A DNA stretch of 64,000 nucleotides from an uncultured candidate division Zixibacteria bacterium (GTDB lineage Bacteria > Zixibacteria > MSB-5A5 > GN15 > FEB-12): positions 768,001 through 832,000 of the forward strand of contig CAWDXE010000007.1 of the NCBI GenBank assembly GCA_963806185.1, written 5' to 3'. Position numbers and translations under genes: made by a program. Position 1 is the stretch's first letter. Each line of letters opens with the position of its first letter. The notes beneath the pieces are model-generated. The model searched no databases. It was given only the letters and a program-made list of their open reading frames with translations, and was not told where the DNA came from. Below are positions 3,803 to 49,576 of the stretch, one piece after another.

Positions 3803-3807
3803 GCCAG

Positions 3808-4599: not shown

Positions 4600-4610
4600 C
4601 CGGCGACGCG

Positions 4611-4662: not shown

Positions 4663-4780
4663 CGCGACGTACATTTCCTGAGAACATGTGAGGCTCCCGC
4701 GCTGCCTCGGCCCGATTCGCCCACGATTCGGTCCGTGCCGCGGATAACGTATCAGCGATCATCTCTACCAAGGAGGTTTC

Positions 4781-6688
4781 ATGCGTAATTGGCTGACCGC
4801 CGGGCTCGTCTTAGCCCTGACCACTGCGACCCAGGCCGCCTATTTTACCAAAGTCACCAGCGGCCCGGTAGTGACCGACGGCGGCGATTCGCGCAGCGTT
4901 GATTTCATCGACTACGATAACGACAACGACCTCGACCTGTATATCACCAACGGTCCAAAGCTTGGCGCGGTCAATTTTCTCTACCGCAACAACGGTGACG
5001 GTACCTTCACGAAGGTCACTGGCGACGACGCCGTGACGGTTGCCCTTGCCTATGACGGAGCCACCTTCGGCGATTACGATAACGATGGCGACCTCGACCT
5101 CTTCGTCGCCACATGGTGGGGAAACGTCGATCTGCTCTGTGAGAATAACGGTGACGGAACCTTCACGCGTATCACCAGCGCGCCGGTCGCGACCCTGGCC
5201 GGTCACGGCGAGGCGGGAAGCTGGGCCGACTGGGATAACGACGGTGACCTCGACCTGTATGTCGCCAACTCCGGGGGAGATCTGAAAGATTTCGTCTACA
5301 TCAACGATGGCACGGGCAATTTCGCCCGCATTCTGACCGGACAACTGGCCACCGACACAGATACGAAACGCGTCGGCGCCTGGGGTGACTACGATAATGA
5401 CGGCGATCTGGACCTGTTTATAGCCACAGAATCGGCCAATCCCAACCGACTTTATCAGAACCAGGGCGGCGGCGTATTGACTCAGGTAAACGCGGGAGCC
5501 ATTACCTCAGACAACGCCTTCTGCTTCAGCGGTAGTTGGGGCGACTATGACAACGACGGCGACCTTGACCTGTTTGCCACCTCCGCCGGTTCACAGGCAA
5601 GCAATCTGTTTAATAACCAGGGGAATGGCACATTCATAGAAATTACGAGCGGCGCTCAGGTAACAGATATAGCCAATTGCGTATCGAGTGGCTGGGCCGA
5701 CATTGACAACGACGGCGATCTCGACCTGTTTGTCACCACTGGCTTTGGCAGCCTGACGCAGAAGAACCGGCTGTACATCAATAACGGAGACGGAACATTC
5801 ACGCGGGACATCACTGATCCCACCACTATCGATAACGGCTGGACCTACGGCTGCGCGTTTGGCGACATTGACCGCGACGGCGATCTCGATCTGGCTATTG
5901 CCAAATGCGCGGGTGCGGCTGAGAACAACGGCCTGTTTCTCAATGACGGTAATGCCAACCATTGGCTGGACATCCGCCTTCAGGGAATGGTGAGCAATGC
6001 AAGCGCTATCGGCGCCCGAGTGCGCGTCAAGGCTACGATCAACGGCACTCCGGTCTGGCAGATGCGTGAAATCTCGAGTCAGGACGCTTACTGTAATCAG
6101 AGCGGCCTTTCAGCGCATTTCGGACTGGGCGACGCAACTGCGGTCGATTCAATCATCATGACCTGGCCTTCGGGCATCATCCGAGTTCTCGAGAATGTAC
6201 CGGTCGACCAGTTCCTGGTCGAGGCCGAATGCGTGAGCGATCCCGACGACGACGGCGTTCTCTGCCTCGACAACTGTCCGGCCACGCCGAATCCGGGTCA
6301 GGAAGACGCCGACAACGACGGCATCGGTGATCTCTGTGACGCCTGTCCGAACGACGCCAATAACGACGTCGATGGCGATGGGCTGTGCGCCAACCTCGAC
6401 AACTGCCCCCTCGTCTTCAATCCGGGTCAGGAAGACACCAACAATGACGGCATCGGTAACGCCTGTTGCTGTATCGGCGTCACCGGCAACATTGACTGCG
6501 ATTCCGGTCAGGGTGTTGACATCGGAGATTTGACGACGCTGATTGACAACCTATTCATTACCTTCACCACCTTGTGCTGCGATACTGAAGCTAATACTGA
6601 CGGTCTGGGAGGCGTCGACATTGGCGACCTGACCGCGCTGATCGACAACCTCTTCATCACCTTCACACCGACTGTCGCCTGTCAGTAA
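4781..6688 (+). CDS. Secreted FG-GAP/VCBS beta-propeller protein (CRTAC1/ASPIC-UnbV-like) with TSP3 repeats and dockerin-like tag
   Basis: AAGGAGG SD and signal peptide. Seven D.DND.DLDL-type repeats, ASPIC/UnbV motif (NASAIGARV...AHFGLG..WPSG), DNCP..NPGQED TSP3 repeats and a duplicated VDIGDLT.LIDNLF. Confidence 0.88.
   Translation: MRNWLTAGLVLALTTATQAAYFTKVTSGPVVTDGGDSRSVDFIDYDNDNDLDLYITNGPKLGAVNFLYRNNGDGTFTKVTGDDAVTVALAYDGATFGDYDNDGDLDLFVATWWGNVDLLCENNGDGTFTRITSAPVATLAGHGEAGSWADWDNDGDLDLYVANSGGDLKDFVYINDGTGNFARILTGQLATDTDTKRVGAWGDYDNDGDLDLFIATESANPNRLYQNQGGGVLTQVNAGAITSDNAFCFSGSWGDYDNDGDLDLFATSAGSQASNLFNNQGNGTFIEITSGAQVTDIANCVSSGWADIDNDGDLDLFVTTGFGSLTQKNRLYINNGDGTFTRDITDPTTIDNGWTYGCAFGDIDRDGDLDLAIAKCAGAAENNGLFLNDGNANHWLDIRLQGMVSNASAIGARVRVKATINGTPVWQMREISSQDAYCNQSGLSAHFGLGDATAVDSIIMTWPSGIIRVLENVPVDQFLVEAECVSDPDDDGVLCLDNCPATPNPGQEDADNDGIGDLCDACPNDANNDVDGDGLCANLDNCPLVFNPGQEDTNNDGIGNACCCIGVTGNIDCDSGQGVDIGDLTTLIDNLFITFTTLCCDTEANTDGLGGVDIGDLTALIDNLFITFTPTVACQ
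6464..6688 (+). repeat. Cys-bracketed duplicated dockerin-like module (copy 2)
   Basis: CCCIGVTGNIDCD..VDIGDLTTLIDNLF..CC..EANTDG..VDIGDLTALIDNLF..CQ. Confidence 0.8.
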
Positions 6689-6710
6689 GCCAATTGTGCA
6701 TTGCAAAGCT

Positions 6711-6746
6711 ATCCACGGCCGTAAGACCGGCCGTGGATGGATTTTT
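6711..6746 (+). terminator. Rho-independent terminator
   Basis: Perfect 11-bp stem atccacggccg/cggccgtggat with a 6-nt loop, followed by ggattttt. Confidence 0.7.
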
Positions 6747-6814
6747 CTGATTGCATAAATGGCGCGTTCTATCGTCTATTCCTGTATCAGCGTTTCTCGT
6801 ACAGGAGTGACCTC

Positions 6815-9217
6815 GTGCGCCGCCGTCGATCTCAGCTGTTTACTCTTGCTTGTCTCCTTCTGACCGAAGTCTGGTTGCCCGGGATGCATGCTCTGGCCGA
6901 CTCGACAGACGCCGCGCTTGTTTCCTCCGCCTATCGCACGACCGAGCACAACGTCGGGCGGCTGGCCTTTTCATTAAACAACAATGGCGGCTTTGGCGGC
7001 ATGGCCAGCCTCTCGGGCTATCGGGATTATTTCACCGGCCGTCCGGTCCGCGACGGTGAGTATCCGATCGGCAGCGGACAGTCATTCATCGGTTTTGGCG
7101 GCCTCTGGGTTGGTGCCGTGGTTGGCAATGACACCCTCGTCTCGACCACTTTCAACAGCCCCGCCTATCAGAAGAATGGTCAAAACCAACCGGCGGTGGA
7201 GCTATTTGAGTTTCAACCCGGCGGCGACGGTGAAGAATCTCTGCAGAAGCGATCTACCCTCGCCCACGATTCAGGCGCTGTCTCCCATCAGGACATTCAA
7301 GCTATCTATGCCGATACGTGTACGACTTGTTTTCCGCAAACAATCGACTGGAAAGACAATCGCCCGCATCGACCCTTGGGAGTCGAAGTACGCCAGCAAT
7401 CATACGCGTGGACATATCCATGGGCTGATGCTGTCATCCTGATCGCTTACACCATCAAGAATGTGAGCACCAGCCAGCTTTCCAACCTCTTTGCCGGAAT
7501 CTACGTCGATGGCGACGTGGTCAATCGCGAGTATGCACCGCTTCGATACACCGATGACATGACCGGAATCCGATGGGTGACGACAAACAGTTCCTCGTGC
7601 CTGGCTGGGGATTCTATACTGATAGCGTGGATAGCTGATAACGACGGCGACGATTCTACTTGTGGCGGCATGTACACCCTTCCGCACGCATTAGCCGTTT
7701 CGGTACTGCAGGCTGACGGCGGCGCCGGCCTGCGCAGTTGTAATTGGTGGGTGACCGGAAGCAACGGCGACGATTTCGGCCCGCGCCGTCGCTCCACCGG
7801 CTCTGAACCGTATCGTGACTTCGGCACTGGCAACACCGGTGTCCCCTATGGCGACAAAACCAAATACTATATGCTCAGACACCGTGAATTCGATCACTCT
7901 CAATACTACACCAAAGCAATTGCGACCAACGATTCGCTCTGGTCGTACGTGCCGGATCGGAATCTGGCTTCGCGCGTCACCGTAGGCGGGGATATCCGGG
8001 TGCTCCTGTCAGTCGGCCCCTGGCAACTGGCGCCGGGGGAGGAGGCCTCCTTCGCGGCCGCCTTTATCGGTGGCGAAAGCCTCTTTACGAGTTGCGGCAT
8101 TCCCACCGGCCTGCCCGACCAGCCCGCGGCCTATGTCGCTCGCTTGAACTTCTCCTCGTTGGACGACAACACCGGGATTGCCTCGCGCATACTCGACGTT
8201 CCGGGCGTTGACTCGGATAGCGATGGCTACGCCGGCACCTTCATTGTATGCGATGCTGAGACTACCTGGACCGGCGGTGACGGCCGACCGGATTATCTCG
8301 CCGACGTCCCGCCGGTGCCGCCGATTGTCTCGGCCAATCCCATTGATGGCGGCTTTCGAGTTCGCTGGAACGGCGGTCCGTCGGAATTGCGGCCGGATCC
8401 GATCAGTCGCCGGGCTGATTTTGAAGAGTATCAAGTTTTGCTTGGTGCTGACTCCGCGAGTGAATTTACCGTCATCGCTACCTGGGACCTCGACGATTAC
8501 GTCAAGGAAGTGTGGCATCCGTCGACCGGTTCCTGGTGGTCCGATAATCTACGGTTGAGCGGTGACTCACTCCGTTGTCTGTACGCCCCACAGGGATGTG
8601 CTGACTCCGACTGGGATGCGGCCAGTTTCACGCGCATGTTGCCATTGCACCATCCCCAGTATTCCGATTCAATCTTCGCCTTTGCCCCGATCGGAAGAAA
8701 CGCCAAACTTGGCGAGACTACGGCGATACGAAAGCGATTCCCCGACGCGCCCAGGCCGGCGTATGCACGACCGTCGCTTGTGCCCCCGGAATCGACCCAG
8801 GTGTATCTCACCGATGCCGGTCTGTTCCGGTATTATGAATACGAAATGTACAGAGTCGGTTTGCCGGAAGGCGAGACCTGTTACGTAGCCGTCACGGCGG
8901 CCGACATCGCCTTCCCCGGACTGAATGAGCAACCCCGGGTATCGTCTCCGTCTGCCACCGTCCGCCCAGTGGCCGTTCCAATCCGATTGTGCTGTGCGGA
9001 AACAGTGGGCAACGTCGATTGCGATGAATTCGACGTCACCGACATCGCCGATCTGGCTGCCCTGGTGAATAATTTGTTCGTGGAGTTCTCACCGCCCTGC
9101 TGTTATCGAGAAGCCAATTGTGACGGCATCCCCGGTATTGACATCGGCGATCTGTCTGCGCTGATCAACCATCTCTTTATCTCCGGTGCGCCCCTGCCGA
9201 CCTGCGCTTCGGAGTGA
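6815..9217 (+). CDS. Large secreted protein of unknown function with FN3-like region and C-terminal dockerin-like tag
   Basis: Start moved to GTG 6815 (AGGAG SD), because ORF-track start 6737 lies inside the terminator. Signal-like N-terminus, HNVG...NNG.FG...EYP.GSG...GGLWVGAVVG.DTLVS motif and a C-terminal GNVDCD..DIADL/IDIGDL duplication. Confidence 0.75.
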   Translation: MRRRRSQLFTLACLLLTEVWLPGMHALADSTDAALVSSAYRTTEHNVGRLAFSLNNNGGFGGMASLSGYRDYFTGRPVRDGEYPIGSGQSFIGFGGLWVGAVVGNDTLVSTTFNSPAYQKNGQNQPAVELFEFQPGGDGEESLQKRSTLAHDSGAVSHQDIQAIYADTCTTCFPQTIDWKDNRPHRPLGVEVRQQSYAWTYPWADAVILIAYTIKNVSTSQLSNLFAGIYVDGDVVNREYAPLRYTDDMTGIRWVTTNSSSCLAGDSILIAWIADNDGDDSTCGGMYTLPHALAVSVLQADGGAGLRSCNWWVTGSNGDDFGPRRRSTGSEPYRDFGTGNTGVPYGDKTKYYMLRHREFDHSQYYTKAIATNDSLWSYVPDRNLASRVTVGGDIRVLLSVGPWQLAPGEEASFAAAFIGGESLFTSCGIPTGLPDQPAAYVARLNFSSLDDNTGIASRILDVPGVDSDSDGYAGTFIVCDAETTWTGGDGRPDYLADVPPVPPIVSANPIDGGFRVRWNGGPSELRPDPISRRADFEEYQVLLGADSASEFTVIATWDLDDYVKEVWHPSTGSWWSDNLRLSGDSLRCLYAPQGCADSDWDAASFTRMLPLHHPQYSDSIFAFAPIGRNAKLGETTAIRKRFPDAPRPAYARPSLVPPESTQVYLTDAGLFRYYEYEMYRVGLPEGETCYVAVTAADIAFPGLNEQPRVSSPSATVRPVAVPIRLCCAETVGNVDCDEFDVTDIADLAALVNNLFVEFSPPCCYREANCDGIPGIDIGDLSALINHLFISGAPLPTCASE
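8990..9217 (+). repeat. Cys-bracketed duplicated dockerin-like module (copy 3)
   Basis: CCAETVGNVDCD..DIADLAALVNNLF..CC..EANCDG..IDIGDLSALINHLF..C. Confidence 0.75.
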
Positions 9218-34736: not shown

Positions 34737-36293
34737 TTAGAGCGAATTTCCGGCCACCGAGAGCCGGGTCGATAGAACCGAACTGTCAGCCGCCGTGCCA
34801 AGCTGATGTAGGCGATAGATATTGAACTTGCCGAAGGTCGATTGCTTCTGCAGGTAGCGGCTGATTTCCGGTCGCCCCTCCAGCGTGCGCGAATCCGAAA
34901 TCAGATAGCGCGCCCCGCGCTCCAGCATATTCTCGAACTTATCCGTCGACACGTCCGCGGTTGTCGACCACCCCTTGCGGTGCATGAAGTACAAATCGAT
35001 GCTGGGCGATTGGTCCTCGGCGGCAATCACCAGTTCCGCCCTGTCGGGTATCACCTTGTCGAGGTGCGCCTCTATGCCCAGCAGATCGGCGTTAATTGGT
35101 GACCAATGAAATCGGGGAAGCGCATTCGCACACCCGGCGACCGGCACCGCCAGGAGGAGAACTGCTACCATGGCCTGTAGAGCGCGGGATCTCGACGACC
35201 ATTCCAGTGCAAACCGAACGCCCATCGTCCCAAGCACGACCAACGGCACCAGCGTCGTGGTCAGGTAGTATTCGTGATGCTCGAACATCGGCAACATTGA
35301 TGACATGAAGGCCAGGAGCGGCACCGTACTGAGTACCAGAAATTCAACAGCACTGGCCACTCGAATGCGAAGCAGGGAAAACGCCCCCACCACCAGTAGC
35401 ACGGTCTCCGCTCGATTGACCACAAATCCCGGCATCCATTTTACGAACACGTCCTGCAGCCGGGGGAGAATAATCGCCGTGCCGTACGGCAGCACGGCGC
35501 CCAGCACAAAATCCTCGTTGCCATAGGTGATATTCAGGTAGCGGGCGTAGACATACCAGCTTGCCACAATTCCGCACGCCGCGCCCGACGCCAGCACCAT
35601 GCGTAAACGTGTCGAACGAGACTGCGGTGACTTCACGATATCAAAGAGGTACCACAATACCACAATGATGCCGGTAATCTTTATCAGCGCTGATATCGCT
35701 AGAAATACCAGCGCCCAGACGGCGTACCGCCCGCGATTGACCGTCTTACCGATCTGCCAGCAGGCGAGCGATACGAACAACAGACAAAGTGCCGGGACAT
35801 CCGGCAGCGCCGTGATCGAATAGTACAGGAAAAGCGGACTGAAAATAAGAAAGACGGCGGCGACAAAGCCCATCACTTTCGAGCCCATGAGATAACGCAC
35901 AAATTGAAAGCAGCCGACGATGCCCGTGAAACTGAGAAGTAGCATTACTACCCGCGACAGGGTGTGACTGAATCCAAAAACAGCGTACCCCTGCGCAATG
36001 ATATAATTTACCACCGGGAATTCCATCCCCGCAATTCCCGTCAGATTTCCCCGGGAATCTACGCGCGGCTGAAAGATACTGCCGCCCTCTTCATAGAAAT
36101 TACGAGCCACCGACAACGTCTGCGTCTGCCTCCAGACATGACGACCGGTCGGCGGTAGGGTCACGTAGGGGAGATGTACCAGAATCTGACTCAGTAACAA
36201 AACGGCGACCAGACTGAAAGTTCGGCGCGCTTCCAGCCAGTTGATGATTTGCCCCATTATCCCGGAAATAGCGGTCTGCCCGGTCGCTTGCAT
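34737..36293 (-). CDS. ArnT/PMT-like (GT-C) membrane glycosyltransferase
   Basis: WRQTQT..ARNF, EFP, many TM helices, H.YY motif. Confidence 0.78.
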   Translation of the reverse strand: MQATGQTAISGIMGQIINWLEARRTFSLVAVLLLSQILVHLPYVTLPPTGRHVWRQTQTLSVARNFYEEGGSIFQPRVDSRGNLTGIAGMEFPVVNYIIAQGYAVFGFSHTLSRVVMLLLSFTGIVGCFQFVRYLMGSKVMGFVAAVFLIFSPLFLYYSITALPDVPALCLLFVSLACWQIGKTVNRGRYAVWALVFLAISALIKITGIIVVLWYLFDIVKSPQSRSTRLRMVLASGAACGIVASWYVYARYLNITYGNEDFVLGAVLPYGTAIILPRLQDVFVKWMPGFVVNRAETVLLVVGAFSLLRIRVASAVEFLVLSTVPLLAFMSSMLPMFEHHEYYLTTTLVPLVVLGTMGVRFALEWSSRSRALQAMVAVLLLAVPVAGCANALPRFHWSPINADLLGIEAHLDKVIPDRAELVIAAEDQSPSIDLYFMHRKGWSTTADVSTDKFENMLERGARYLISDSRTLEGRPEISRYLQKQSTFGKFNIYRLHQLGTAADSSVLSTRLSVAGNSL

Positions 36294-36434
36294 TATTCGT
36301 CTTCCTGTAGAGGGAGTGCGTAGATCGTTATTATCTATATATATGTCAGGCTGGTCGGAAAGTCAACTGGTGAACGGCCAACCCAATTGACTACTATGAC
36401 AGGGCTGTGATTTAGTGTAGATTGAGATATGTGC

Positions 36435-37811
36435 CTAGCGCGCCGACGACGACAGCACCGAGTCGGGGGAGAGGCAATCGACGGCCAGTACCCAATCCCC
36501 TTCAAACGGCGGCGTAATGGTCTGCACAACTTTCCGAGACCGAACGGTTTTTGATGACATGCCGCTGCCGGGGTTGATCCAGGTGACCAGCACCGAGTCA
36601 CCCTTCACACACGATGGACTTATTGTAATGGAGCGTTGCGTCGGTACATACCCAAGGATGCCGCTCGAATCAGCCGCATAGGCCAACGTGGCTGGGTCGT
36701 CGGCCGATCCCTCTCCGGCCGTCAGCACTTTTCCAGTCAGGTCCGGCACCAAAGTCCACCAATGGCGTTGGGTCATCACCGACTTGAATACTGACATCGC
36801 CATCGAGCTCCGGCTCCGCAGTGAGGCCCGCCAGTTGTACTGGTCGCCCGGAGGACGCAACTCGCATAGGTCATAACCAAACCACCAGATCGGACAATTG
36901 CCCATGATCGCGCCGACAGCACCCCTCATGGCCGGCCACCAGACTTGCTTGTGATGCCGCAGATCACTCCAGCGGTGCAGTCCCCATTCGCCGTTCTCGT
37001 AGAGCCCCTCAATTTGAAACACAGGGCGTACCGTTTCCAGCGCATAGGCAGCAGTGGTGAGCGTCACATTCTCCAACTCACGATAGGTGTAGATGCCGCG
37101 CAGGTCGATCCAGTTCCCGGGGAATTGCTCGTCGATTGGCTTGACGTCGTCCCCGTGCGCAGTATACAAACGCGCAGAATTGGTGTCCGTGGCCTTCAGC
37201 GCCATCACCAGCGTATCTATCTTGTCACTTAATTGAGCATCCCGAGGATCCTGATCCCCGCCGATCAGCCAAATGATGTTCTTTCCCCCCCGGTAGTGTT
37301 CCCCCAGCCATTCTCCCCATGCCCGAATATCTGCGCTCTTTGCACCGCGAATCTCCGCACAAAATCCGTCCCTGCCGCTGCCTGCTTTGGGCGTACATCC
37401 GGCGCCGATATACATGGGTGCCAACAGTACCGCGATCCCTAGTTCGCCCGCCCGATCAATCATCGAATCGGCGAGAGCAAAGTAAGCCGGGTTGGGGGTC
37501 GCGAAACACCTCCCGGTAAACGGAGATACATTATATGTGTTGTTGGGAGCCGAAAACGCAAACCGATGCTCGATCAGATTTACGATGACTACGTTGAATC
37601 CCCGATTCGCCCGATCCGTCAGATAGATATCAGCCTGACGGTACGTCAACTGGGTTGTCAGTGACCAGGCCGCGTCGCCCACCATCAGGAATGGCTCACC
37701 CCTGTTGTCCTCCAGATAGCGGCCGTTCGCACTCACACGGAGCGGGAACTCGTCCGCCGCCACCGTCGTGGCAGCCAGAATCAACAGCACTAAGATCGGC
37801 CTGATCATCAT
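36435..37811 (-). CDS. Secreted DUF4038/apiosidase-like glycoside hydrolase with putative collagen-binding C-domain
   Basis: Signal peptide; LRVSANGRYL..GEPF..GD.AW, RGFN, NPAYF, NIIWLIGGD, E..YE; C-terminal W.NP.SG...PP..GDWVL. Confidence 0.8.
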   Translation of the reverse strand: MMIRPILVLLILAATTVAADEFPLRVSANGRYLEDNRGEPFLMVGDAAWSLTTQLTYRQADIYLTDRANRGFNVVIVNLIEHRFAFSAPNNTYNVSPFTGRCFATPNPAYFALADSMIDRAGELGIAVLLAPMYIGAGCTPKAGSGRDGFCAEIRGAKSADIRAWGEWLGEHYRGGKNIIWLIGGDQDPRDAQLSDKIDTLVMALKATDTNSARLYTAHGDDVKPIDEQFPGNWIDLRGIYTYRELENVTLTTAAYALETVRPVFQIEGLYENGEWGLHRWSDLRHHKQVWWPAMRGAVGAIMGNCPIWWFGYDLCELRPPGDQYNWRASLRSRSSMAMSVFKSVMTQRHWWTLVPDLTGKVLTAGEGSADDPATLAYAADSSGILGYVPTQRSITISPSCVKGDSVLVTWINPGSGMSSKTVRSRKVVQTITPPFEGDWVLAVDCLSPDSVLSSSAR

Positions 37812-37883
37812 TCACTATAATACAACAGGCAACGGTCGTCGGGCTAGTTGATTTGTAGATCTCACCGTCCGAAGACACTGAGG

Positions 37884-39482
37884 TTATTGCATGATGAGTA
37901 TGTCAATCCGCCGGTTCTTAGCCCTTCCTTCCGGTGTACTTTGCGAGGCGATCGGCTTCTCGGATCCATACCCTATCGCCCGAATTCTGTCCGACGGTAT
38001 ATTCATAGTTTGGCGCAGATATTGCATGACTGCAAACGCTCGCTTCTCCGACAACTGTGTATTGGCCGCCGGCTCGCCCCGATCGTCGGTATGCCCCTCA
38101 ATCACCAACGGTGACTCGGGGAAGAGGCCGATGATTTGCTTCACCTTTTCAAGCAAGGGCAACTGCTGATCGACTATCTCGCTCTTGCCCGCCGCAAACG
38201 ACAGCCCGGACAATCGCAAGACGATGTCATTGGAGGCGTTGACGATCATCTCGCCCTGCGTCGGGTCAATCATCGACTTCGCCGTAATGAGCCGTTGTTC
38301 GCGCTCTTCCTTGGATTGCAGCGCGGTAGTCACTTCACGATGTTCCTCTGAAAGTTGGGTGAGCTTGCTTTGTTCGGCCGCCACCTGTTCGGAGAGGCGG
38401 CTCCGCTCCACCGCGACTCCTGCCGCGATACTGTCGATGGCCTGGAGCATCCCCATTGGACTCTGAATGGTGGTGTCCCCGCCAAGCGCCACCAGCGTCG
38501 ACATAAGGCTCTCCCGAAGCTGCTCGCGCGTGCCTTTCACTTCTTCCATTTCTCTGCCCAGTTTAGCCAGGGAGTCGCGCAACACGTTTACGTCGGCCGA
38601 TGATGACGACCGCAGCGCCTGTATTCCGGAGATCAGCGAGTCGGCGGCTTTTGACGGTCCCAGGTCGAATGGCAGATGATCTATCCCCAGAAGCAGTCCT
38701 GCGCGGTCCATCTGGATTTCATAGAGCAGCATCAACTTCTCCCAAGCCTGATCGTTTCTATTGAGCGACCGAACCGACTGGGAGATATTCGATGCGTGGC
38801 GGGCCTCGTATTCCGCCTCGGTCGCCGTCTTGGTGGCTTCCGTCCGGTTATACCGATTGGCCGTCAATATACCATTCGCCTTCTCGCGGGCCGTTTTGGC
38901 CTTGTCGAGTATGGTCAGGGCATATTTGGGCGCTTCATCCGCTGTGGCAGTGGCGATCAGCTTGTCGGCCGCTCCGAGTACGTCGACCCGAATCGACTCC
39001 ATCTCCGCAACATCGTAGAGAGGCGTCGATTTGGCTGCCTCTTTCAGTCCCCCCTTGACGTCACCGGACTCAACCTTGGCCGCCGCGGCAATGAATTGCG
39101 CCTCCGCTTTGTCGTATAGCGTGGTCACCAGCATAGGTGCCTTGGCGACGCGCGCCTTTGTTCGGGCCGGCAGATATTCTCGTAATGACAACTTGCAGAC
39201 ATCGGTGTTTTTGAGCGCATTTTCGCCGTATTCACGTGCCTTGGCGAAATACCCGGTCACCGTCGAAGCTCCCCGTTTCAAGCTGACCGCCTGCTGCCCC
39301 ATGTCAAACTGCGCCTTCGCTTTCTCGTAAGCCTTGGGGGAGAATATGGGCGCTTCCACTACCTTGAGCGAATCAAGCAACCGCTGCACCTCGGCGCCGT
39401 CAGCGCCGCTTTGTGCCCGGCCGTTATCTGCCAGCACGCACATCGCCAACGTCGCGAGAATAAGCTTGAATCCATTCTTCAT
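37884..39482 (-). CDS. OmpA/MotB C-terminal domain protein with long helical/coiled-coil N-terminus
   Basis: Signal peptide; IEGHTD..G...N..LS.KRA, GYGSEKPIA, NRRIDI. Confidence 0.88.
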   Translation of the reverse strand: MKNGFKLILATLAMCVLADNGRAQSGADGAEVQRLLDSLKVVEAPIFSPKAYEKAKAQFDMGQQAVSLKRGASTVTGYFAKAREYGENALKNTDVCKLSLREYLPARTKARVAKAPMLVTTLYDKAEAQFIAAAAKVESGDVKGGLKEAAKSTPLYDVAEMESIRVDVLGAADKLIATATADEAPKYALTILDKAKTAREKANGILTANRYNRTEATKTATEAEYEARHASNISQSVRSLNRNDQAWEKLMLLYEIQMDRAGLLLGIDHLPFDLGPSKAADSLISGIQALRSSSSADVNVLRDSLAKLGREMEEVKGTREQLRESLMSTLVALGGDTTIQSPMGMLQAIDSIAAGVAVERSRLSEQVAAEQSKLTQLSEEHREVTTALQSKEEREQRLITAKSMIDPTQGEMIVNASNDIVLRLSGLSFAAGKSEIVDQQLPLLEKVKQIIGLFPESPLVIEGHTDDRGEPAANTQLSEKRAFAVMQYLRQTMNIPSDRIRAIGYGSEKPIASQSTPEGRAKNRRIDILIMQ

Positions 39483-39852: not shown

Positions 39853-40401
39853 ATGCCTCAATCTATCGCACAACTCTGGTCAGGCATTCTGGATGGCAAT
39901 CCGCGCTCGTGGGAGGAGATGGTCCGCCGCTTCAATCCGCTGGTTGTCGCCGCCGCTCGGGCTCACGGTCTTGCGGCGGTGGATTTGGAGGATTGTGCCC
40001 AGCAGACCTGGTTGGCCCTCTACACCGGCCGGGCACACATCAATGATCCCCTGGCCATACCGACATGGCTCGTCACCGTCGCCAAACGCAAAGCGCAACG
40101 CCTGCAAATAAGACAGAAGGCCGGAACCACCGCAGAACAGGAATTCAACCCGGAAGCCAACAGCGTCTCACCCGAAGATTTATATGTCAAGGCGCTCGAG
40201 GCGGCACGCCTCCATATCGCCCTCGAGCTGTTGGACAGCCGCTGTGCCCGCCTGCTCAAGCGATTGTTTCTGGCATCGGAAGAATATACGTACCAGGAAA
40301 TTGCCGAAGAATTACGGATCGCGCCCAACAGCCTCGGCCCAATCCGCTCCCGCTGTCTGGCCCGGTTGCGCAAAATCCTGAGTGAACTTGATCACGGATA
40401 G
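39853..40401 (+). CDS. ECF RNA polymerase sigma factor
   Basis: 182 aa. Region 2 (W..MV.RF..LV, EDCAQQTW, WLVTVAKR) and region 4 (YQEIAEEL...SLGPIRSRCL.RLR). Confidence 0.9.
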   Translation: MPQSIAQLWSGILDGNPRSWEEMVRRFNPLVVAAARAHGLAAVDLEDCAQQTWLALYTGRAHINDPLAIPTWLVTVAKRKAQRLQIRQKAGTTAEQEFNPEANSVSPEDLYVKALEAARLHIALELLDSRCARLLKRLFLASEEYTYQEIAEELRIAPNSLGPIRSRCLARLRKILSELDHG

Positions 40402-40491
40402 TACTAACTCCCTTTGAGCCGGTACTTATTGAATGACTGGCCTGATCGCATACGACGGTCCGAGCCACGCCCGCGAAACGAGACCTGATTT

Positions 40492-41055
40492 ATGACAAAT
40501 GCCACCAAACATCCCTCGAGACAGGCGCTTCACCGTCACCTGCAAGTTGCCGAATCCAGCATCTCCCGGCATCTGAAAAGTTGCGAAGACTGCCGACTAA
40601 TTGTCCACTCAATGCGCCACCTTATGGCTGTTGACGATCAGGCGGCCGACCGGGCCCGCCGGGAGTCTCTGGTGCAAAGCATCTTGAGTGTGCCGGCACT
40701 CTCCGCTCCTCCGGCAGGCCGCCCGCGCCTCGCTCCAATTGTGCGGGATTCGTGGCAATCCGCCATGGTTGCCCAATTGCGTCACGCCGCTCACGGGGTA
40801 GAAAGACGCCTGAGATTCCACGTCGGCGACATTACCGTCGACCTCGTCGCCGATCGTCTCGGCGACAAGTGGAACTGCTCTATGCGCATCAGCCGCCGGG
40901 GACGGTCCGTCTCTCAATTCGCGGCCAGCCTCGGCAAGCGGAAGATGCTGCCGGTCGACGTCGGCTTCTTCTCCTGGGTGGCCAAACGCCCGCCTAAGCA
41001 AATTCGACTATGGTCTTCCGATTCGAAAATCCTCCTGGAGACCATACCGTGGTAG
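40492..41055 (+). CDS. Putative soluble zinc-finger (ZAS) anti-sigma factor
   Basis: HLKSCEDC = Hx3Cx2C at 40570-40593; no TM helix; directly downstream of the ECF sigma. Confidence 0.7.
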   Translation: MTNATKHPSRQALHRHLQVAESSISRHLKSCEDCRLIVHSMRHLMAVDDQAADRARRESLVQSILSVPALSAPPAGRPRLAPIVRDSWQSAMVAQLRHAAHGVERRLRFHVGDITVDLVADRLGDKWNCSMRISRRGRSVSQFAASLGKRKMLPVDVGFFSWVAKRPPKQIRLWSSDSKILLETIPW

Positions 41056-43820
41056 CCTCACGCCCAAAGCTCAGTCTGGCTGCCCGGCGCTTCCTGGACG
41101 GCGGGGGAATCCCGTCCGATCCATCGGCCATGATCCGGGAATGCGACACTTATGTCCGGAAATACACCCAGGTTGACCTGGTCAAAGCCAGAACCCTGGC
41201 CCACCAGTTTGTTCTCCGAACCCGCACCCTGCCACCAGCCGACCGGGCCACCGCACTCCGCGCCCTTGGTTGGACCTGCCAAGTGGGTGCCGCCTATCGG
41301 GAAGCCGAATCCGCTTACCTCAAAGCCCGCAAGCTGGCTGGAAACGACACCGATCTGCGCGCTCGTATCGACCGCATTCTCATCGATGTATATATGTATC
41401 TGGGCGACTACCGCGAAGCCGTCCGTCGGGCGCGCATCGCCATCGCCGCTTTTCGCCGTTTGCACGACCGCGACGGAGAAGCCAAGACCCTCGTTAATCT
41501 CGCCAACGTGTTCCATCGTCAGGATCGGCACGTCGATGCCCTGCGGCTGTATCGAAAAGCCGCCCGGCACTACGAAAATACAAGTGACAAGCTCACCTTG
41601 GGTGTGTGCAGCTACAATTGTGCCAACTGTCTGGTGCAGTTGCTCCAGTTTGACGAGGCCGATGCTCTCTATCGGAGCGCCGAACGGCTGTTTGGCGAGG
41701 TCGAGTATGGCCTCTATGTCAACGAGGCCAGATACGGCCGCGCCTGGTTGGATAAGCTCCGGGGCAATTATCACCTCTCCCTCCGCGCCCTCGCCGAATG
41801 CGAGGAGGAATATCGAAAGATTGGTCAGCCGAAGGGGGTGACGCTCTGCCAGCTCGATCGTGCCGAAGTCATGCTCGAATTGCAGCTCCTCTCTGATGCC
41901 CGGGCCCTTGCTAAAGATGCCGAAAAAAGCGCTCGAAAACTCAAGATTCAGTATGAGGCTGCCAAAGCCGCGCTCTTCCTGGCGAAAGCTGCCTTCGGCC
42001 TCGGGGCAAATCGCGAGGCACAGGAGGCTCTCAGGCGCGCCCGCATTGGCTTTGAATCGGTTAAGAACGATACCATGGTCGGTGTCAGTCGATTCTATGA
42101 CGCCCTGTATCACGACGGTGAATCCAGCCTGGCTGAACTCGACTCGACTCGACGGCTGTTCCATTCCGCCCAATTGCCCCTCTGGCAGGCGGTGTGTGAT
42201 CTGACGTCAATGGCCATACGCGCGCCCCGATATGATGCGGCTACCCTTCAACGATTGGCGAAAAATCCCGCCGTTTCCTCCGTCCCGCACCTCTACGCAG
42301 GATGGAAAACACTTCTGGGTGATCGTTCGCTGAGTCGCCACGACCTCACCGGCGCCAAGCGCAACTGGACCCGGGCGGCCGATGCGCTTGATAAAATGCG
42401 GGCCAAACTCCCGCCCGTTGACATGCGTCAAACCCTGACCGAAAAAAGCCTGGATCCGTACAAGCGTATGTTTGGCCACGAAATGACTCGCCACCCCGAG
42501 GCGGCCGCCATTTGGTCCGAACGAAGCAAGATTGCGGGCATCTGGACATACGATCAATCGGCCGACCTCCCCGACGCTCGACGCAAAGTCGCCGACCGTC
42601 TGGCCGAATTGGCCCAACATGTCACGGCGCTCTCGTCATCGCTCGAACGAACCAGGGGAGAGGCGGCCGGCCAACTCTGGCCGACCGACAATCGATTCTG
42701 CCGACTGCAGGCTGAAATCAGACGTGACCTTCTGGCCGCGCACGAAAGCGACTTTTCCGTTGCCGGTACGCATAACACAATCAGGGATACCATCCGCGAT
42801 GCCTCAACGGTCAATCCTCTGGTGCAATTCCACATGGACGATGATCGACTGGTGGCCTTTGTCCATCAGCGAGGTGTCACTCGCACACACATCTACCCTG
42901 ACTCGCAGCGTATGCTGACCCGCTTTCTCGGTCAGTGGAATGTTCTGCTCATCAATACTGTCGCCCGGGGGCAACGGCAGCGTCTGGCCGACCGGGACGA
43001 GGAGACCCGCCTGCTAACCATGCTCGGCGACTGGCTCTGGAGACCGCTTGAGCTACCCTTGGATTGCCCACAAGTCACCATTATTCCAACCGGCGAGATG
43101 GCCAGTCTGCCTTGGTCAGCCATGATTGTCGATGGCTCTGCACTCATCGATCGTCATCGCTTCACCCTGGCTCCCAGTATCAGCCATTTTGCGGCTTCCG
43201 CCCGGTTTAGAATTACCAGCCGCTCAGCCCGAATCTTTGTGGGCGATACCAGCGGCCTCAAGTATGTCGCCGATGAACTCTCCGCCGTGTCACCGCTCCC
43301 CGCTGTCGACCTCGACGTCTGTCGACCATGCCTCCGGGAGAACTGGCCCCTGTCCGGAGAACATCTGCTCTGGCACTACATCGGCCACGCGCAATTTCGC
43401 GGCGATAATCCGTTTTATTCTTCACTCCTGCTGGAAGACGGCCCGATCTTCGCGGCCGATTTCCGACTGCGTTCCTGTCGGGTCGGCCTGGTCACCCTGG
43501 CCGCCTGCCGTACCGGCGTGCAATCGTCCGTGCCCGCCTACGAATCGACCGGCCTGGTACGGTCCCTCCTTGAAATGGGAGCGCAAAACGTCCTCGCCAG
43601 CCACTGGTCGGTGGGTGACCGCCCCACCGCCGACTGGATGAGGACCTTCTATGCTTTACTTGGCAACGGCCATACCCTGTTGGACTCCACACGCCTCACC
43701 ATTCAACGCATGCGCGAGATGTACCCGTCGGCCGGACAATGGGCCGCGTTTTCCCTGTTTGGTGCCGGTCGTGATGCCTGGGATAAGAATTTCTTCAAAA
43801 GAGATATGAGGAGAATGTGA
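41049..43820 (+). CDS. TPR-CHAT (caspase/separase-like clan CD) protease
   Basis: N-terminal TPR repeats; [18 protein letters not shown] (His 43386); [18 protein letters not shown] (Cys 43506); [16 protein letters not shown]. Probable GTG start overlapping the upstream stop. Confidence 0.9.
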
Positions 43821-43822
43821 TC

Positions 43823-46800
43823 ATGCGTGCCAATCGATCAGTCAGTTGGTTGATCCCTCTGCTGGTGTTGCTTCTGGCGGCTACGGGAACGACCGGGGAG
43901 CACAATCCCTTTATCGTTGGACAACTGGTACTCAAGATGTTATCGGGCGGAGACGTCAACGCTCTGGCTCAGCAGTACAATCTGGACCTTCGACAACATT
44001 TGCCCCAAATTGACGTCTACCAGGTAGACGCAACGCCGGGTGCCGACCTCGATTCACTGTCGGCAGTGATCTCGGCGCAATCCGACGTCGAGTTCTGCCA
44101 TCCCAACTATGTGCTGGATCCACTGCGATCCGTGCAGAGCAGCCTGCCGATCTCCGACGACAAAGCCTTGCCTGACTATGAATCGCAGGGGTCGGTGAGT
44201 CGTCTCCAATTGACCGAGGTACATACTCTCACCACCGGTCAGGGAGTCAAGGTCGCCATTCTTGACGGCGGCGCCGAATTCTCCCATCCATTGATTTCCG
44301 GGGTCGTTCTTTCCGGCTATGATTATGTTGATGACGACGCCGACGCGTCCGACGTACCCGGCGGCAACAACTACGGCCACGGTACCTTCGTCGCCGGTAT
44401 CGTGCATCTCGTGGCCCCCGACGCACAAATCGTCGTCTACCGCGTCAGTGACCCCCAAGGCGAAGGGAATGGGTATATCGTCGCCGAGGCCCTCCTTCAG
44501 GCCGTTGCTGACGGCTGCAAGATTATCAACATGAGCATGGTCGTGCATGGATACCACATGGCTATCGCCAAGGCTGTCGAGTACGCCCGCGATCACAATG
44601 TCCTGGTCGTGGTCGCCGCCGGCAATGATCAGGAAAATCAAGGTGTTTTCCCGGCCGATCATCCGGACGTACTTTCGGTTCTGGCCGTCGACACGGCCGA
44701 TCACCTGTCCACTTTCTCAAATTACGGCAGCCATATCGACATCGCCGCCCCCGGCGAGCTGGTGGTAGGGCCTTACCACAGCGGTAAGTATGCGTTGTGG
44801 GGTGGAACGAGCTTTGCCGCGCCGTTCGTCGCCGGACAAGCGGCGTTGATCCTGTCGCTTGTGCCAAACATTCCCTGGAACAACCTCTTCCAGACCATCG
44901 TCAATTCCGCGGTCAATATCGATCTTAACAACCAGGGGTACGAGGGTCAACTGGGAAGCGGCCTGACCAATCCGCTCGGTTCGGTACAACAGGTCGAGCC
45001 TACCGACCTCCTGCACTTCGTGTGCTGGCCGGTGAGCAGCGGGGGAAATGGGCACTGGTATGGTGCGATCCCCGACCTGTTAAATTGGGACTCTGCCCGT
45101 CAACGGGCTACCACATACTCGTACGGGGGGTTCACGGGCCATCTCGCCACAGTCAATACGCCCGCCGAGAATAATTTCATCTATCAGCAGGTAATGGTCG
45201 GACTGACGCCAGGGTCGGTCCTTGAACAATACTTCCTCGGATCCCGGCTGGTCAACGGCCAGCGAACCTGGATAACCGGTGAGCCGTTCACGTATTCCAA
45301 TTGGGCGCCGGGAGAACCTGGTGGCGGCTTCAGCGAACCAGGATCTGCGATGTGGGGAAGCACGAATACTGCCGCCAATCGGACCCCCGGTACCTGGAAT
45401 GACGTCGCCATCGACCAAACATCCAGCAATTATCTCTATTTGGGGATAGTTGAATTCGGCGACACAGTTGACACCGACCCATTTGATTCCAGTGCTGTTT
45501 GCGGTAATGTCAACATGGATTTGCTCGGCCTGGTGGACACGGCCGACGTCTCAGCGCTCATGTCCTACCTCCACAAGGACTTGTCACTTAGTATCTCGCC
45601 AACAGCCGCTAATGTCGACTTGAGTGTGAACCTCGATAACAATGACGTCGTCGTGCTGGCCGATCATGTATACGGCGCCCACAATCCGCTGACGTGCGCG
45701 CCGACCTTCGTCGGTAACTACCCCCAGAACACTGCTGACGTGATCACGATCAGCCCCCTGACCATCACTCCGCCGTATGCGGCAAGGGTTGTTGCCGAAG
45801 TCACGTTCACTGCCAGCGAACCGTTCCGGGGTCTTTCCTTCACCTTTGAATACGGGTCTTACGGCAACTACGGATACCTCTCGAGCATCACGCTGCATGA
45901 TTCCGCCGACCAATGCATGACCGGAATCTTCCCGAACACCCACAACGGCGCGATTGCCCTGCTGGAACAAGACACCGACTTACCCGCCGGTGAATACCAC
46001 ATTGCCACGCTGGTCTTTGACAACGTCGTAGGGCCCTCACCGCAAATATTCCTCGATACGACCACCCTCAGCCGTGGCGCTCGAGTCGTGGTTTCTCGGC
46101 AAGGCGGACTCGTGTCTACAATTCCGGAGATCCTCGGCCGCAATCCTGGTTTCGACCTCGACGGTGACGGTGTCCCGGACGCTACCGACAACTGCGCGGT
46201 AAGAGCCAACCCGGATCAGCTTGACGGCGATAACGATGGGGTCGGTGATGCCTGCGATCCCGACTTCGTCTGTGGCAACATCGACTGTGATTTGACGCTC
46301 GACCTCAGCGACCTTGCTAGATATATCGATTACCTGCATTTCGGAGGTCCCTCCGACATATGTGAATCGGTGGCTGACCTCGATCAGTACGTCGGCCTCA
46401 CGAACAATGACATTGTCGCTTTCATTCGCTGGATTTTTGTCACCTTCGAACCCCTGCAGTGTTCGCCTACTCTCCTGGGTTCATTTCCGGTCGACCCCGG
46501 CGATATCCTGACGATTGGTGATCTTAACGTTCCGCCGAATACACCGACGTGGGATGTGCCACTCATGTTCACCGCCAGTGCTCCATTCGACGCCCTCGCC
46601 TTCCCCTTTGTCTACTCCTCAACCGGAGATCAAGCCGTCCTGTCTTCAGTCACGGTAGTTATGGGAGACCAAATGGAAGTTGGCCGGGCGTTCCCCGCCA
46701 CCCATTCCGGAACCGTTGCCTTCTCTTCGTTTCAAAATGACTTTGCTGCGGGGTCATATCTCATCGGGACGCTCCATTTCACCAATACGAGCTCACCCAC

Positions 46801-48682
46801 CGGCATGCAGATCACGCTCGACTCGACCACCAATTCTCGCGGGAGCACAACGGTGGTGTCGCGCGATTGGGGAGTGCTGCCAAGCATTCCGTCACTGCGG
46901 GCCTACGACCCGACACTTGACTGGGACGGCGATGGTGTCGGCGGGACGACGGACAACTGCCCTTTGGTCGCCAACCCGGATCAATCCGATCGGGATCATG
47001 ACGGCGTCGGCGATGCCTGCGACGAATGCCCGGATCTCGTCAACCCCTGCGCCGTTGTCTGCGGACTCACGGGCGACGTTACGCTCGACGGCAACGTCAA
47101 CATCGGCGATCTCACCTATCTGGCCGACTACCTCTATCTCGGTGGTCCTGCCCCGGTGAATCCGCTTACTGCCGACTGTGACAATGTGGCCGGCATAACA
47201 CCTCGCGACCTCGTGGTGCTCAACGGGTACCTCTTCGCGCACACCACGACACTATCCTGCCCGCCGAGTTCCGCGACCTATCCGCCAACCGATCCTTCGA
47301 TCGTCCTGCGACTGCCCAGCCTGCTTCCTGCGGGTGTGTCGCAGCTCGCCTGTCCGCTCTGGCTGGAGGCGCCGGTTGACGTCGTGTCCTTCAATCTCCC
47401 GCTCCAGGTGCGCGTGGGCGATGAAGTACCGGTTATCGATTCCTTCGTGCAATCGCCCTTCTTCAAAGCAACGACCGCGTGGATCATGAAGCCGGAGGAT
47501 CTGTTTTCGACCAAAGCCGACTCCGGAATCGCCCTGATTGCCGGTTCAACCGCCATGGTATCCGACCTGTCCTTGCCGGCCGGAAGCAATTTGCTTGGCA
47601 CCCTTTATATCACGGTCACGGCGAACGACAGTGATCGCACCGTCTCCGGTTCCTGGGGCCTCATGTACCCGCAGCATCCGCTGCCCGTTAGCTATCCCGA
47701 GGTCGGCTTGTTGCCGCAGATCGTGGGCAAAGGGGGACCATCGTTGGCCAAGCCGCTTGACCAGCTCGCCGTCATCTACACGCAATATACGCCGACGCTG
47801 ATCGAGGATCCCGGCTGCTGCCTCGGCATCAGAGGCAACGTCGATTGCGACCCGGCTGACAACATCGACATCGGCGACCTTACCTGCTTCATCCAGGGTC
47901 TGTTCCTCTTCGGCGAGGGTGGAGGATGTATGTGCTGCCTTGAAGAGGCCGACGTGAACAGGGACAACGGCGTTGACATCGCCGATCTTACCGACCTGAT
48001 ATGCTACCTCTTCTTGGACTGTGATCCTCCGCCGTCCTGTGGACCCGTCGCTCTCGGACTTGTCCCGGCTGCGAAAGTGCAGGCTGGCGTGACAATCAAC
48101 ACCGAATATGCCGACGGCAAGACCACCGTAACTCTTTCCTCCGACGTCGATCTCCTCGGTGTTCAACTCACACTTCCCGGTTCGTCGCTCGGCAAAGCGC
48201 AATCACGATCGCCGGAGGGCATGGAACTCTACCAGGGCACTTGGGACAATAGGACGCACATTGGATTATTGGATATGGAGGGAAAGCTCTCCTGGAGCCC
48301 AGGCAATCACACGCTGCTGGTCATCGACGGTGAGGCGACGATTACCGAAGCTATTGTGGCCGATCTGAATCACCATTCCTGGACCGCCGAGACTTCTTCC
48401 TCCAGGTCGTCGGTGCCGGCAACATTCTCATTGGCGCAGAACCACCCCAATCCGTTTAACCCGGCAACGACCATTGAGTTCAGTATTCCCAAACCCGCGC
48501 ACGTTGAACTGTCCGTGTACAACGTGAGCGGGCAATTGGTCGCCGTGCTCGTCGATCGGGAACTGCCGGCCGGCGCCCAGTCACTCGATTGGAACGCTTC
48601 CGCGCTCGCGAGCGGTGTGTACGTCTATCGCCTGACCACGCGCGATTATTCGGCGACGCGCAAGATGATTCTGCTCAAATAA
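43823..48682 (+). CDS. Secreted S8 subtilase with C-type lectin, dockerin-like, cohesin-like and TSP3 modules and T9SS-type C-terminal domain
   Basis: GAGGAG SD and signal peptide. Triad VAILDGG / HGTFVAG / GTSFAAP; lectin ([17 protein letters not shown]); four GN/GD.D...D..D EF-hand pairs; C-terminal [15 protein letters not shown]...ASGVYVYRL...KMILLK. Confidence 0.9.
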
Positions 48683-48718
48683 TTGCGAACCCGCAGTCCC
48701 CGGGAAATCGCCCAGCAT

Positions 48719-48756
48719 CCCGGCAGCGATCGTGCCTTTTCGCTGCCGGGGTTTCT
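48719..48756 (+). terminator. Rho-independent terminator after the S8 gene
   Basis: cccggcagcga/tcgctgccggg stem followed by gtttct. Confidence 0.6.
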
Positions 48757-48961: not shown

Positions 48962-49468
48962 ATGACAGACTCCTCCGACCGTCAGAAAGAAATTACCATC
49001 ATTGACTTCAAGCGTAAATACGCGCGGAATTTTCGGGATATCAATCGCGCGTGGATCGAAGAGTATTTCGAGCTGGAACAATACGATCTCATCATGATCA
49101 ATGATCCGGAGGGCCAGATCATTGCGCATGGCGGCTGCGTGCTGTTTGCCGTCATTGACGGAGATGTTGTGGGCACGTGTGCGTTGCTCAGACATGCCGA
49201 GCGGAAATACGAACTCGCCAAAATGGGCGTGCTGAAGGCATATCACAATCGCGGCGTGGGGAAGAAGCTGGCCGAGGCCGCCATTCAGAAAGCCCGAGCG
49301 CTGGGAGCCGACGTTCTGGTTCTGGCCACGAGTCGGAAGTTGGAAGCGGCCAACCATCTCTATCGAAGTCTGGGCTTTTGCGATGTGGACCTTGCGGAAG
49401 TCGGCCCGCTGCCGTACAAGCGAGAGTCAATCGCGATGCGCCTGAGCTTGGGAGGGCCCGCGAAGTGA
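48962..49468 (+). CDS. GNAT-family N-acetyltransferase
   Basis: VGTCAL, YELAKMGV, RGVGKKL, LYRSLGF. Confidence 0.88.
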   Translation: MTDSSDRQKEITIIDFKRKYARNFRDINRAWIEEYFELEQYDLIMINDPEGQIIAHGGCVLFAVIDGDVVGTCALLRHAERKYELAKMGVLKAYHNRGVGKKLAEAAIQKARALGADVLVLATSRKLEAANHLYRSLGFCDVDLAEVGPLPYKRESIAMRLSLGGPAK

Positions 49469-49482
49469 TCTCGGCAAATCTA

Positions 49483-49566
49483 TGCCGGAGGTCGGACTCG
49501 AACCGACATGTTCTTGCGAACGGGGGATTTTGAGTCCCCTGCGTCTACCAGTTTCACCACTCCGGC
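49483..49566 (-). tRNA. tRNA-Leu (CAA), CCA not encoded
   Basis: Reverse complement GCCGGAGTGGTGAAACTGGTAGACGCAGGGGACTCAAAATCCCCCGTTCGCAAGAACATGTCGGTTCGAGTCCGACCTCCGGCA gives a cloverleaf with long variable arm and anticodon CAA. Confidence 0.96.
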
Positions 49567-49576
49567 AAGAATGCCC

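Follow-up and report, generated by a model that had tools for sequence, protein, structure and literature searches.

How could a sigma factor of the extracytoplasmic function (ECF) type be placed under the control of a caspase-family protease in the absence of a CRISPR (clustered regularly interspaced short palindromic repeats) system? This question is raised by a four-gene cassette in a 64,000-nt stretch of DNA from an uncultured candidate division Zixibacteria bacterium (contig CAWDXE010000007.1, positions 768,001 to 832,000; hereafter, the window). Running along the plus strand, the cassette encodes an ECF sigma factor of an ECF54-like clade (39853–40401, 182 aa; ORF (open reading frame) list, Pfam, NCBIfam and a quick tree), a small soluble protein that is a likely anti-sigma factor and a likely CHAT substrate (40492–41055, 187 aa), a TPR-CHAT caspase-family protease (41049–43820, 923 aa; Pfam, hydropathy and a structural model) and a predicted exported S8 subtilase (43823–48682, 1619 aa; Pfam, codons and hydropathy). 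We propose, at a probability of about one half, that the cassette is a cytoplasmic, protease-operated sigma switch. The small protein would hold the sigma factor inactive, and the TPR-CHAT protein would dock on it; a peptide in the TPR groove would then cause CHAT to cut the small protein, perhaps after Arg97. The freed sigma factor would transcribe the genes for the small protein, CHAT and S8, the last of which would be exported.

The sequence-only reading of this DNA had described four co-oriented genes, the last three overlapping or abutting, and the ORFs and their junctions bear this out: the GTG start of CHAT (41049) overlaps the stop codon of the small-protein gene (41053–41055), and the CHAT stop codon (43818–43820) abuts the S8 start at 43823. 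Pfam recognized the sigma factor (Sigma70_r2, 5e-9), the protease (CHAT, 3e-31, plus TPRs) and the subtilase (Peptidase_S8, 6e-44, plus a prodomain, C-type-lectin-like, TSP_3 and dockerin-like domains and a Por/FlgD-like tail); for the 187-aa protein, Pfam and NCBIfam gave no useful family match. The catalytic residues named in that reading, CHAT His780 (43386) and Cys820 (43506; together 43386–43508, plus strand) and S8 Asp148, His186 and Ser330, are encoded by intact codons at all five positions. Of the closing terminator that it had proposed, a 13-bp hairpin is present on the plus strand at 48717–48752 (z = −2.67 for the 98-nt stretch), but its U-tail is weak and it is absent from a consensus terminator scan, so that a terminator is plausible, not certain.

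CHAT was matched in 39 of 61 related genomes at E ≤ 1e-10, and 57 regions around the stronger matches were taken for comparison. Counting CHAT rows at E < 1e-30 and more than 500 aa gave 56, the window included, which fall into the close clade A, with 32 rows, and the distant clade B, with 24; two weak CHAT loci without the cassette (L085 and L086) and a contig-edge fragment (L084) fell below this cut-off. S8 lies directly 3′ of CHAT in 54 of the 56 rows, the exceptions being L041 and L076. A co-oriented sigma gene was found upstream by phmmer in 52 and, on inspection, also in L001, with its split CHAT, and in L082; the two rows left without one are L005, at a contig edge, and L076, which is rearranged (248–6224) to a sigma–small protein–S8 block on one strand with CHAT divergent, like the layout seen in Nonomuraea (below). 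The locus L001 (10001–15256 of contig C1, minus strand) is a second sigma–small protein–CHAT–S8 cassette in the window genome itself, an assembly of 8 contigs that is 82% complete; its S8 is short (470 aa) and its CHAT is in three pieces owing to two frameshifts, one beside an A7 run, which may reflect assembly error or decay. Because the four-gene arrangement recurs across relatives and has this second copy in the same genome, it is not due to chance. The co-conservation on which the sequence-only reading depended is thus present, and the active sites follow suit, with CHAT His and Cys, which are thus under selection, invariant in 56/56 rows, S8 Asp and His in 54/54 and Ser in 52/54, both misses being alignment gaps. 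Matches to the small-protein profile came from 80 of 201 genomes belonging to the phylum and, at E ≤ 1e-10, from 214 cluster representatives, and one close sigma homolog carries the name candidate division Zixibacteria.

A cassette of this kind could also be a mere cluster, a mobile or co-regulated block whose products do not act on one another. It lies at unrelated positions in variable copy number, and interaction among its products rests on prediction; however, two deep clades preserve the gene order, an actinobacterium has it in rearranged form, the genes overlap or abut and share a promoter-like motif, and catalytic and groove residues are invariant, which makes mere clustering very improbable. 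Pairwise identities of the four genes are correlated (Spearman 0.62–0.67, 27 loci), a pattern that demonstrates joint inheritance but not interaction.

Several relatives deserve separate mention. Clade-A and clade-B cassettes stand back to back in L046 (8130–19092), their sigma genes divergent, whereas in L061 a clade-B cassette is directly followed by a clade-A one. DUF5666 proteins are encoded directly 3′ of S8 in two clade-A loci (L044:6318–7595 and L060:672–1892). An apparent sigma–small protein fusion in L061 spans a run of N and was rejected as a natural fusion, as was a small protein–CHAT fusion in L078, an N-gap artefact. A direct pattern look-up of CHAT relatives in genome contigs gave 53 matches, of which 0 were confirmed.

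The sequence-only reading had surmised that such neighbourhoods might already be catalogued in other phyla, and they are: the accessible text of Casas-Pastor et al. 2021 (PMC7826278) gives the ECF54 group as 100% Actinobacteria and assigns it a +1 carboxypeptidase-regulatory-like protein, a subtilase and a TPR-CHAT protein, with no putative anti-sigma factor. According to excerpts of citing papers, the group goes back to Huang et al. 2015 and has been listed since then among the sigma factors without a known regulator; proteolytic control is proposed for it in the ECF54 passage of a review (PMC8999054). In a quick tree of 75 rows, built without a reference ECF54 sequence, the window sigma factor, clades A and B and two actinobacterial sigma factors form a 65-row group (SH-aLRT, Shimodaira–Hasegawa-like approximate likelihood ratio test, 95) set apart from 9 other ECFs of the window genome. 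Here, the window protein groups with the cassette sigma factors of its relatives and with a Nonomuraea sigma factor from a locus that also holds CHAT, S8 and a 156-aa +1 gene, in which the CHAT gene is split into two overlapping frames (L087:2649–5481). The other two plasmid matches of the sigma factor showed sigma alone and sigma with S8, respectively. In Miltoncostaea (L089:399–8999), a related sigma gene, with a large kinase upstream, is followed by S8 and a GAF protein, and no CHAT match was found in the 14.5-kb stretch.

The Zixibacterial cassette shares with ECF54 the joint presence of ECF sigma, +1 protein, subtilase and TPR-CHAT, and its predicted promoter resembles the one published for the group. 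It differs in phylum, in a +1 protein with a zinc-binding anti-sigma (ZAS) motif and similarity to RsiW, in a predicted exported S8 (the Nonomuraea S8 has no signal peptide by eye) and in the gene order sigma–small protein–CHAT–S8 with a promoter motif at the sigma 3′ end. The cassette is most fittingly placed within the ECF54 context, as a Zixibacterial variant. What it adds to that context is the ZAS/RsiW-like +1 protein, the promoter motif at the sigma stop codon and a separase-like CHAT for which binding to the small protein is weakly predicted.

The small protein is probably the anti-sigma factor of the cassette, a role already proposed from the sequence and now supported by profile and fold comparisons. 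At E ≤ 10, its profile had a single sequence match in the PDB, the anti-sigma factor RsiW (E 0.013). The AlphaFold model (mean pLDDT, predicted local distance difference test, 90) comprises N-terminal helices (10–65) and an Ig-like beta-sandwich (79–182); in a wide structure search, residues 5–72 aligned to RsiW (Z 4.7, root-mean-square deviation (rmsd) 3.3, 64 aa) and residues 6–63 to RslA (Z 4.7, rmsd 4.9, 57 aa), whereas the C-terminal part gave generic, middling Ig-like folds (best Z 7.8). Like the anti-sigma factors of the SigW–RsiW and SigL–RslA pairs, the small protein combines an HxxxCxxC motif (H27, C31 and C34 within residues 27–34; 40570–40593, plus strand, from sequence and alignment) with an N-terminal helical anti-sigma-like fold. 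Its gene adjoins an ECF sigma gene. Unlike those anti-sigma factors, the small protein lacks a transmembrane (TM) helix, has an Ig-like cytoplasmic C-terminal domain and often loses the motif. A hydropathy scan (not SignalP) revealed no TM-like stretch in the sigma factors or small proteins and no signal-like N terminus in 56/56 CHAT rows, three of which, all of clade B, exceed a 19-residue hydropathy of 1.8; in the same scan, a signal-like h-region was present in 54/54 cassette S8 rows. The sequence-only reading had assigned the same compartments.

Of 31 clade-A proteins, HxxxCxxC is found in 22, and an N-gap and a late start call account for two of the misses. Of 134 full-length representatives, 94 have it and 40 have lost it, and it was seen by eye in 0 of 20 clade-B proteins. 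The zinc motif is, on this alignment evidence, dispensable, and such frequent loss disfavours redox sensing as the main trigger. The zf-HC2 family was weakly matched by 5 of 29 clade-A small proteins, none of which had a Pfam match to the carboxypeptidase-regulatory-like domain. Among clade-B proteins, sub-threshold matches to CarboxypepD_reg (4/20) and zf-HC2 (3/20) were obtained, and the small proteins of the two clades are homologous (hhalign 97%); the CarboxypepD_reg matches weakly tie the family, at the level of sequence profiles, to the ECF54 +1 protein. Of the residues that are conserved, D86, R97 and R105 are invariant in 49/49 aligned clade-A and clade-B proteins, and only these and S87 reach at least 90% conservation in that alignment. 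The D86-S87...R97 loop (40747–40782, plus strand) carries R97, the candidate scissile residue, within residues 91–100, the block of lowest pLDDT in the model. We infer that the protein joins an anti-sigma domain, for which zinc is optional, to a docking domain whose conserved Arg is exposed.

The partner for such docking would be CHAT. Its model (pLDDT 84) matched separase (E 5e-17), Csx29 (8e-15) and DdvA (3e-12) by fold; separase, the best whole-protein match, gave a TM-score of 0.55 by query at rmsd 10.8 and 12% identity. At the sequence level, the best PDB matches of its TPR region were the TPRs of Pins/LGN and kinesin light chain, and neither Csx29 nor DdvA was among the PDB matches at E ≤ 0.01. 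The likeness to eukaryotic separase is one of fold only, and neither securin nor cohesin is part of the present system. Complex prediction of CHAT 42–907 with small protein 56–187 yielded 0.56 against 0.00 for the best of 3 controls, with at least 75% of contacts agreeing between runs and a partner pLDDT of at least 72; the mark applied was reached by 116 of 157 solved pairs and by 2 of 215 mismatched pairs. The modelling of this complex, suggested by the sequence-only reading as a check, thus separated the pair from its controls but gave only a weak pass, and binding of the small protein by CHAT is weakly predicted. Separases are described as cutting after Arg in the pages of PMC11506125 that deal with them. 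Cleavage of the small protein by CHAT is, in our judgement, marginally the better bet, with the bond after Arg97 as the best guess for the site.

The published view of ECF54, proposed in the accessible parts of PMC8999054 and of the PMC7826278 supplement, is a different one: there is no anti-sigma factor, proteases control the sigma factor by degradation, and the +1 protein either serves as an adaptor or inhibits CHAT in the manner of securin. The resemblance of the CHAT model to separase, which has a protein inhibitor, fits this view, the predicted binding suits an inhibitor as well as a substrate, and the +1 protein of Nonomuraea is without the zinc motif. Yet the +1 protein here has HxxxCxxC and similarity to RsiW, and S8, whose N terminus is signal-like in every row, is in a poor position for degrading a sigma factor in the cytoplasm. 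We consider this explanation distinctly improbable for the Zixibacterial cassette.

The output of the sigma factor is suggested by a bipartite, predicted ECF-type promoter motif located at its own stop codon (40401–40428, plus strand; motif model, boxes read by eye). In the window, a −35 box (40401–40407) and a −10 box (40423–40428) are separated by a 15-nt spacer and face the small protein–CHAT–S8 genes. For 27 of the 30 rows of clade A and 21 of the 23 of clade B, the best motif site fell within −50 to +20 nt of the sigma stop codon, and information content was 14.2 (A) and 14.1 (B), compared with 7.9–8.9 in 6 mononucleotide shuffles each. The motif is similar, not identical, to the predicted ECF54 promoter in the accessible portion of the PMC7826278 supplement, and that published motif was read by eye just upstream of S8 in the Nonomuraea locus. 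Autoregulation of the sigma gene at its own 5′ end was rejected, as the regions upstream of it contain weak, scattered matches only. The motif is probably the promoter of the cassette sigma factor, with S8 among its output, and its placement suggests that the small-protein, CHAT and S8 genes are transcribed by sigma, whereas its own gene is not. The sequence-only reading had cast S8 as a possible upstream maker of an activating peptide; because an ECF54-like motif at the sigma stop codon faces the small-protein, CHAT and S8 genes, S8 is first of all a likely sigma output rather than only an input.

Cassette S8s have tails of widely differing length, complete-looking proteins ranging from ~440 to 2210 aa. 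At the junction between prodomain and catalytic domain, 50 of 54 carry a cassette-specific QxSxx(F/I/V/L)xD motif (44135–44158, plus strand, in the window). Among 19 other S8 ORFs, this motif was present in 3 cassette-type copies, occurred as a variant in L076 and was absent from 9 thermitase-like proteins, 6 being unreadable; it may be a self-processing site or the source of a signal peptide. L048 (4529–5962) and L051 (9441–10811) each contain, two genes beyond the first S8, another one of cassette type that has the junction motif, and no copy of the promoter motif was recognized by eye upstream of that second S8 in L048. Two clade-B S8s (L068 and L081) have long extra N-terminal regions.

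The same observations bear on another explanation, in which the small protein is an anti-sigma factor released otherwise, by zinc loss, oxidation or a housekeeping protease, and CHAT and S8 are both outputs, CHAT cutting itself, the S8 precursor or host proteins. CHAT lies, like S8, downstream of the promoter-like motif, and Asp112 at the S8 junction is invariant (54/54). According to the accessible text of PMC11506125, ZAS domains respond to oxidation in other systems and self-cleavage is the mechanism proposed for DdvA. However, many representatives, and clade B as well, have lost the zinc motif but retain CHAT and the D86/R97 loop, and binding of this loop and the beta-domain to CHAT is weakly predicted. 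We regard release by such other means as unlikely. Asp112 itself was set aside as a caspase site: in the alignment it coincides with the PND motif found in ordinary S8s of the thermitase-like kind, presumably a calcium ligand, so that no caspase explanation is needed.

What would trigger the proposed cleavage? In the TPR region, an Asn ladder (N150, N153, N190 and N193, with H156, R157 and D159; 41496–41627, plus strand) lines a predicted peptide-binding groove, and N150, R157, D159, N190 and N193 are kept in every ungapped CHAT row of both clades. The RRNPP peptide sensors (Rap, PlcR and Rgg) offer a parallel, as a TPR groove with conserved Asn could bind a peptide and a secreted protease is linked to it; they differ in that no sequence match to them was reported and the output here is a protease–sigma pair. 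We hold it somewhat better than an even bet that the TPR ligand is a peptide, and doubtful that S8 itself releases it. Also unlikely is the full self-amplifying loop, in which the exported subtilase would release a peptide, either from the QxSxxF junction or as a product of narrow specificity, that re-enters the cell, binds the TPR groove and, through the cut at Arg97, leads to more subtilase.

The sequence-only reading had called the module Craspase-like. In type III-E Craspase, according to the accessible text of PMC10028731, Csx29 binds Csx30, an inhibitor of CASP-sigma, at the C-terminal domain, which it cleaves. The cassette resembles it in the soluble TPR-CHAT fold with a His/Cys dyad, in an ECF-type sigma factor with motifs in its own locus and in what is here a predicted two-domain sigma partner, with a putative N-terminal sigma-binding part and a C-terminal part that would be bound and cut by the protease. 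It differs in that no Cas7-11-type RAMP (repeat-associated mysterious protein) or Cas1 was found in the 82%-complete genome, in the size of the small protein (187 aa compared with 565 aa for Csx30), in having S8 as a component and in its trigger, which cannot be target RNA. Csx30 was not among the PDB profile, Foldseek or wide structure matches of the small protein, although a remote link might escape such lists. The label thus holds for the fold in common with Csx29 but as an analogy, the top fold match being separase, and the cassette is not a Craspase member. Its mode of action is most likely that of a CRISPR-free Csx29/Csx30/sigma switch.

A ZAS domain, a TPR-CHAT domain and an ECF sigma factor also meet in the DdvA/DdvS system of Myxococcus, for which the accessible text of PMC11506125 describes a single transmembrane protein with a periplasmic TPR-CHAT that controls an island of CBASS (cyclic oligonucleotide-based antiphage signalling system) and CRISPR genes; CHAT cleavage in DdvA is described there as proposed, not shown. 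In the Zixibacterial cassette, by contrast, ZAS and CHAT are encoded by separate genes and are soluble, without a TM-like stretch, and no defence island is nearby. Other caspase/ECF neighbourhoods (EACC2), which are not the ECF54-type cassette, are mentioned in an excerpt of PMC8195603. A literature search, with subscription journals mostly outside its coverage, found no experimental study of an ECF54-type or CRISPR-free soluble sigma/anti-sigma/CHAT/S8 system.

These parallels raise the possibility that the cassette is an antiviral alarm independent of CRISPR: TPR-CHAT would respond to a phage protein, and the sigma factor would induce defence. Both characterized CHAT/ECF systems serve defence, as far as the accessible texts go (PMC10028731 and PMC11506125), and the fold is similar to Csx29 and DdvA. 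To examine the surroundings, we scanned 99 ORFs that directly flank the cassette in 53 loci, one gene per side and no more than the first 450 aa of each, without a background rate. By Pfam, the 99 include 10 FG-GAP proteins, 8 further S8s, 2 M28 peptidases and assorted housekeeping genes. Only 10 matched PADLOC at E ≤ 1e-8, nine of them generic: 4 generic subtilases, 3 sigma-54 AAA regulators, 1 ABC ATPase, 1 oxidoreductase and 1 PDC-M59A candidate. The cassette itself gave generic TPR and subtilase matches only. In line with the sequence-only reading, which saw no cas genes or array in the window, neither Cas1 nor a RAMP was found in the 82%-complete genome, and no CRISPR-like array was present in the window among the 20 largest of 21 direct-repeat families, the large ones being coding repeats. 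GC level is flat along the locus, and the four genes diverge together. The phage-defence link suggested in that reading therefore found no supporting sign in the flank scans or the Cas1/RAMP search, and an antiviral alarm is in our estimate highly unlikely. Because the flanks hold mostly genes for secreted proteins and peptidases, with no Cas1 or RAMP and no array-like repeats, the cassette likely controls extracellular proteolysis and secreted-protein loci, not phage defence.

Several results weigh against the protease-operated sigma switch. The RsiW and RslA fold matches are low-ranked (Z 4.7, ranks 42–43), and Foldseek returned nothing for the small-protein model at E ≤ 0.001. When 217 ORFs were searched with the small-protein hidden Markov model, the Nonomuraea 156-aa protein matched weakly (E 0.003), its D, S and R lining up, and hhalign comparison of the two was weak as well (probability 5.6% and 18.3%). 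The mark for complexes was reached at a score of 0.60 or below, a range that includes the 0.56 of CHAT with the small protein, by only 18 of the 157 solved pairs and by both mismatches, and the prediction came with no interface. Several copies of the promoter motif are weak, among them that of the window, which scores low (10.8) and departs from the clade consensus at −10, and in some loci the −35 box overlaps the sigma coding sequence; motif seeds were chosen by eye and scored on their own training set, with mononucleotide-shuffle controls only. The genomes compared are kin, not independent, and in L041 (5078–9100) the fourth gene encodes a 1340-aa protein with a signal-like N terminus and no S8 match. 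Finally, the predicted-exported S8 cannot meet cytoplasmic CHAT after export.

Around the cassette, the minus strand of the window at 34737–39482 encodes a PMT_2 glycosyltransferase, an apiosidase-like hydrolase and an OmpA-domain protein, and the downstream flank (48962–49567) holds a GNAT acetyltransferase and tRNA-Leu(CAA). Coding repeats of dockerin-like and TSP3-like units at 2269–9177 and 46160–48044 are common to several secreted-protein genes and the S8 tail, and an eight-copy coding repeat with ~156-nt spacing occupies 4899–6343.

If the proposed switch is right, the cassette represents a caspase-family switch that is gated by a ligand and stands alone. It makes testable which signals activate bacterial TPR-CHAT proteases outside CRISPR and what regulates ECF54-type sigma factors: its zinc anti-sigma domain, predicted promoter, candidate cut site Arg97 and TPR groove provide handles, and its regulatory parts are soluble and small enough to reconstitute. 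Were the self-amplifying loop true, it would supply a mechanism and the missing anti-sigma factor for the whole ECF54-type family, and the cassette could then represent the kind of CRISPR-free module from which Craspase signalling was recruited.

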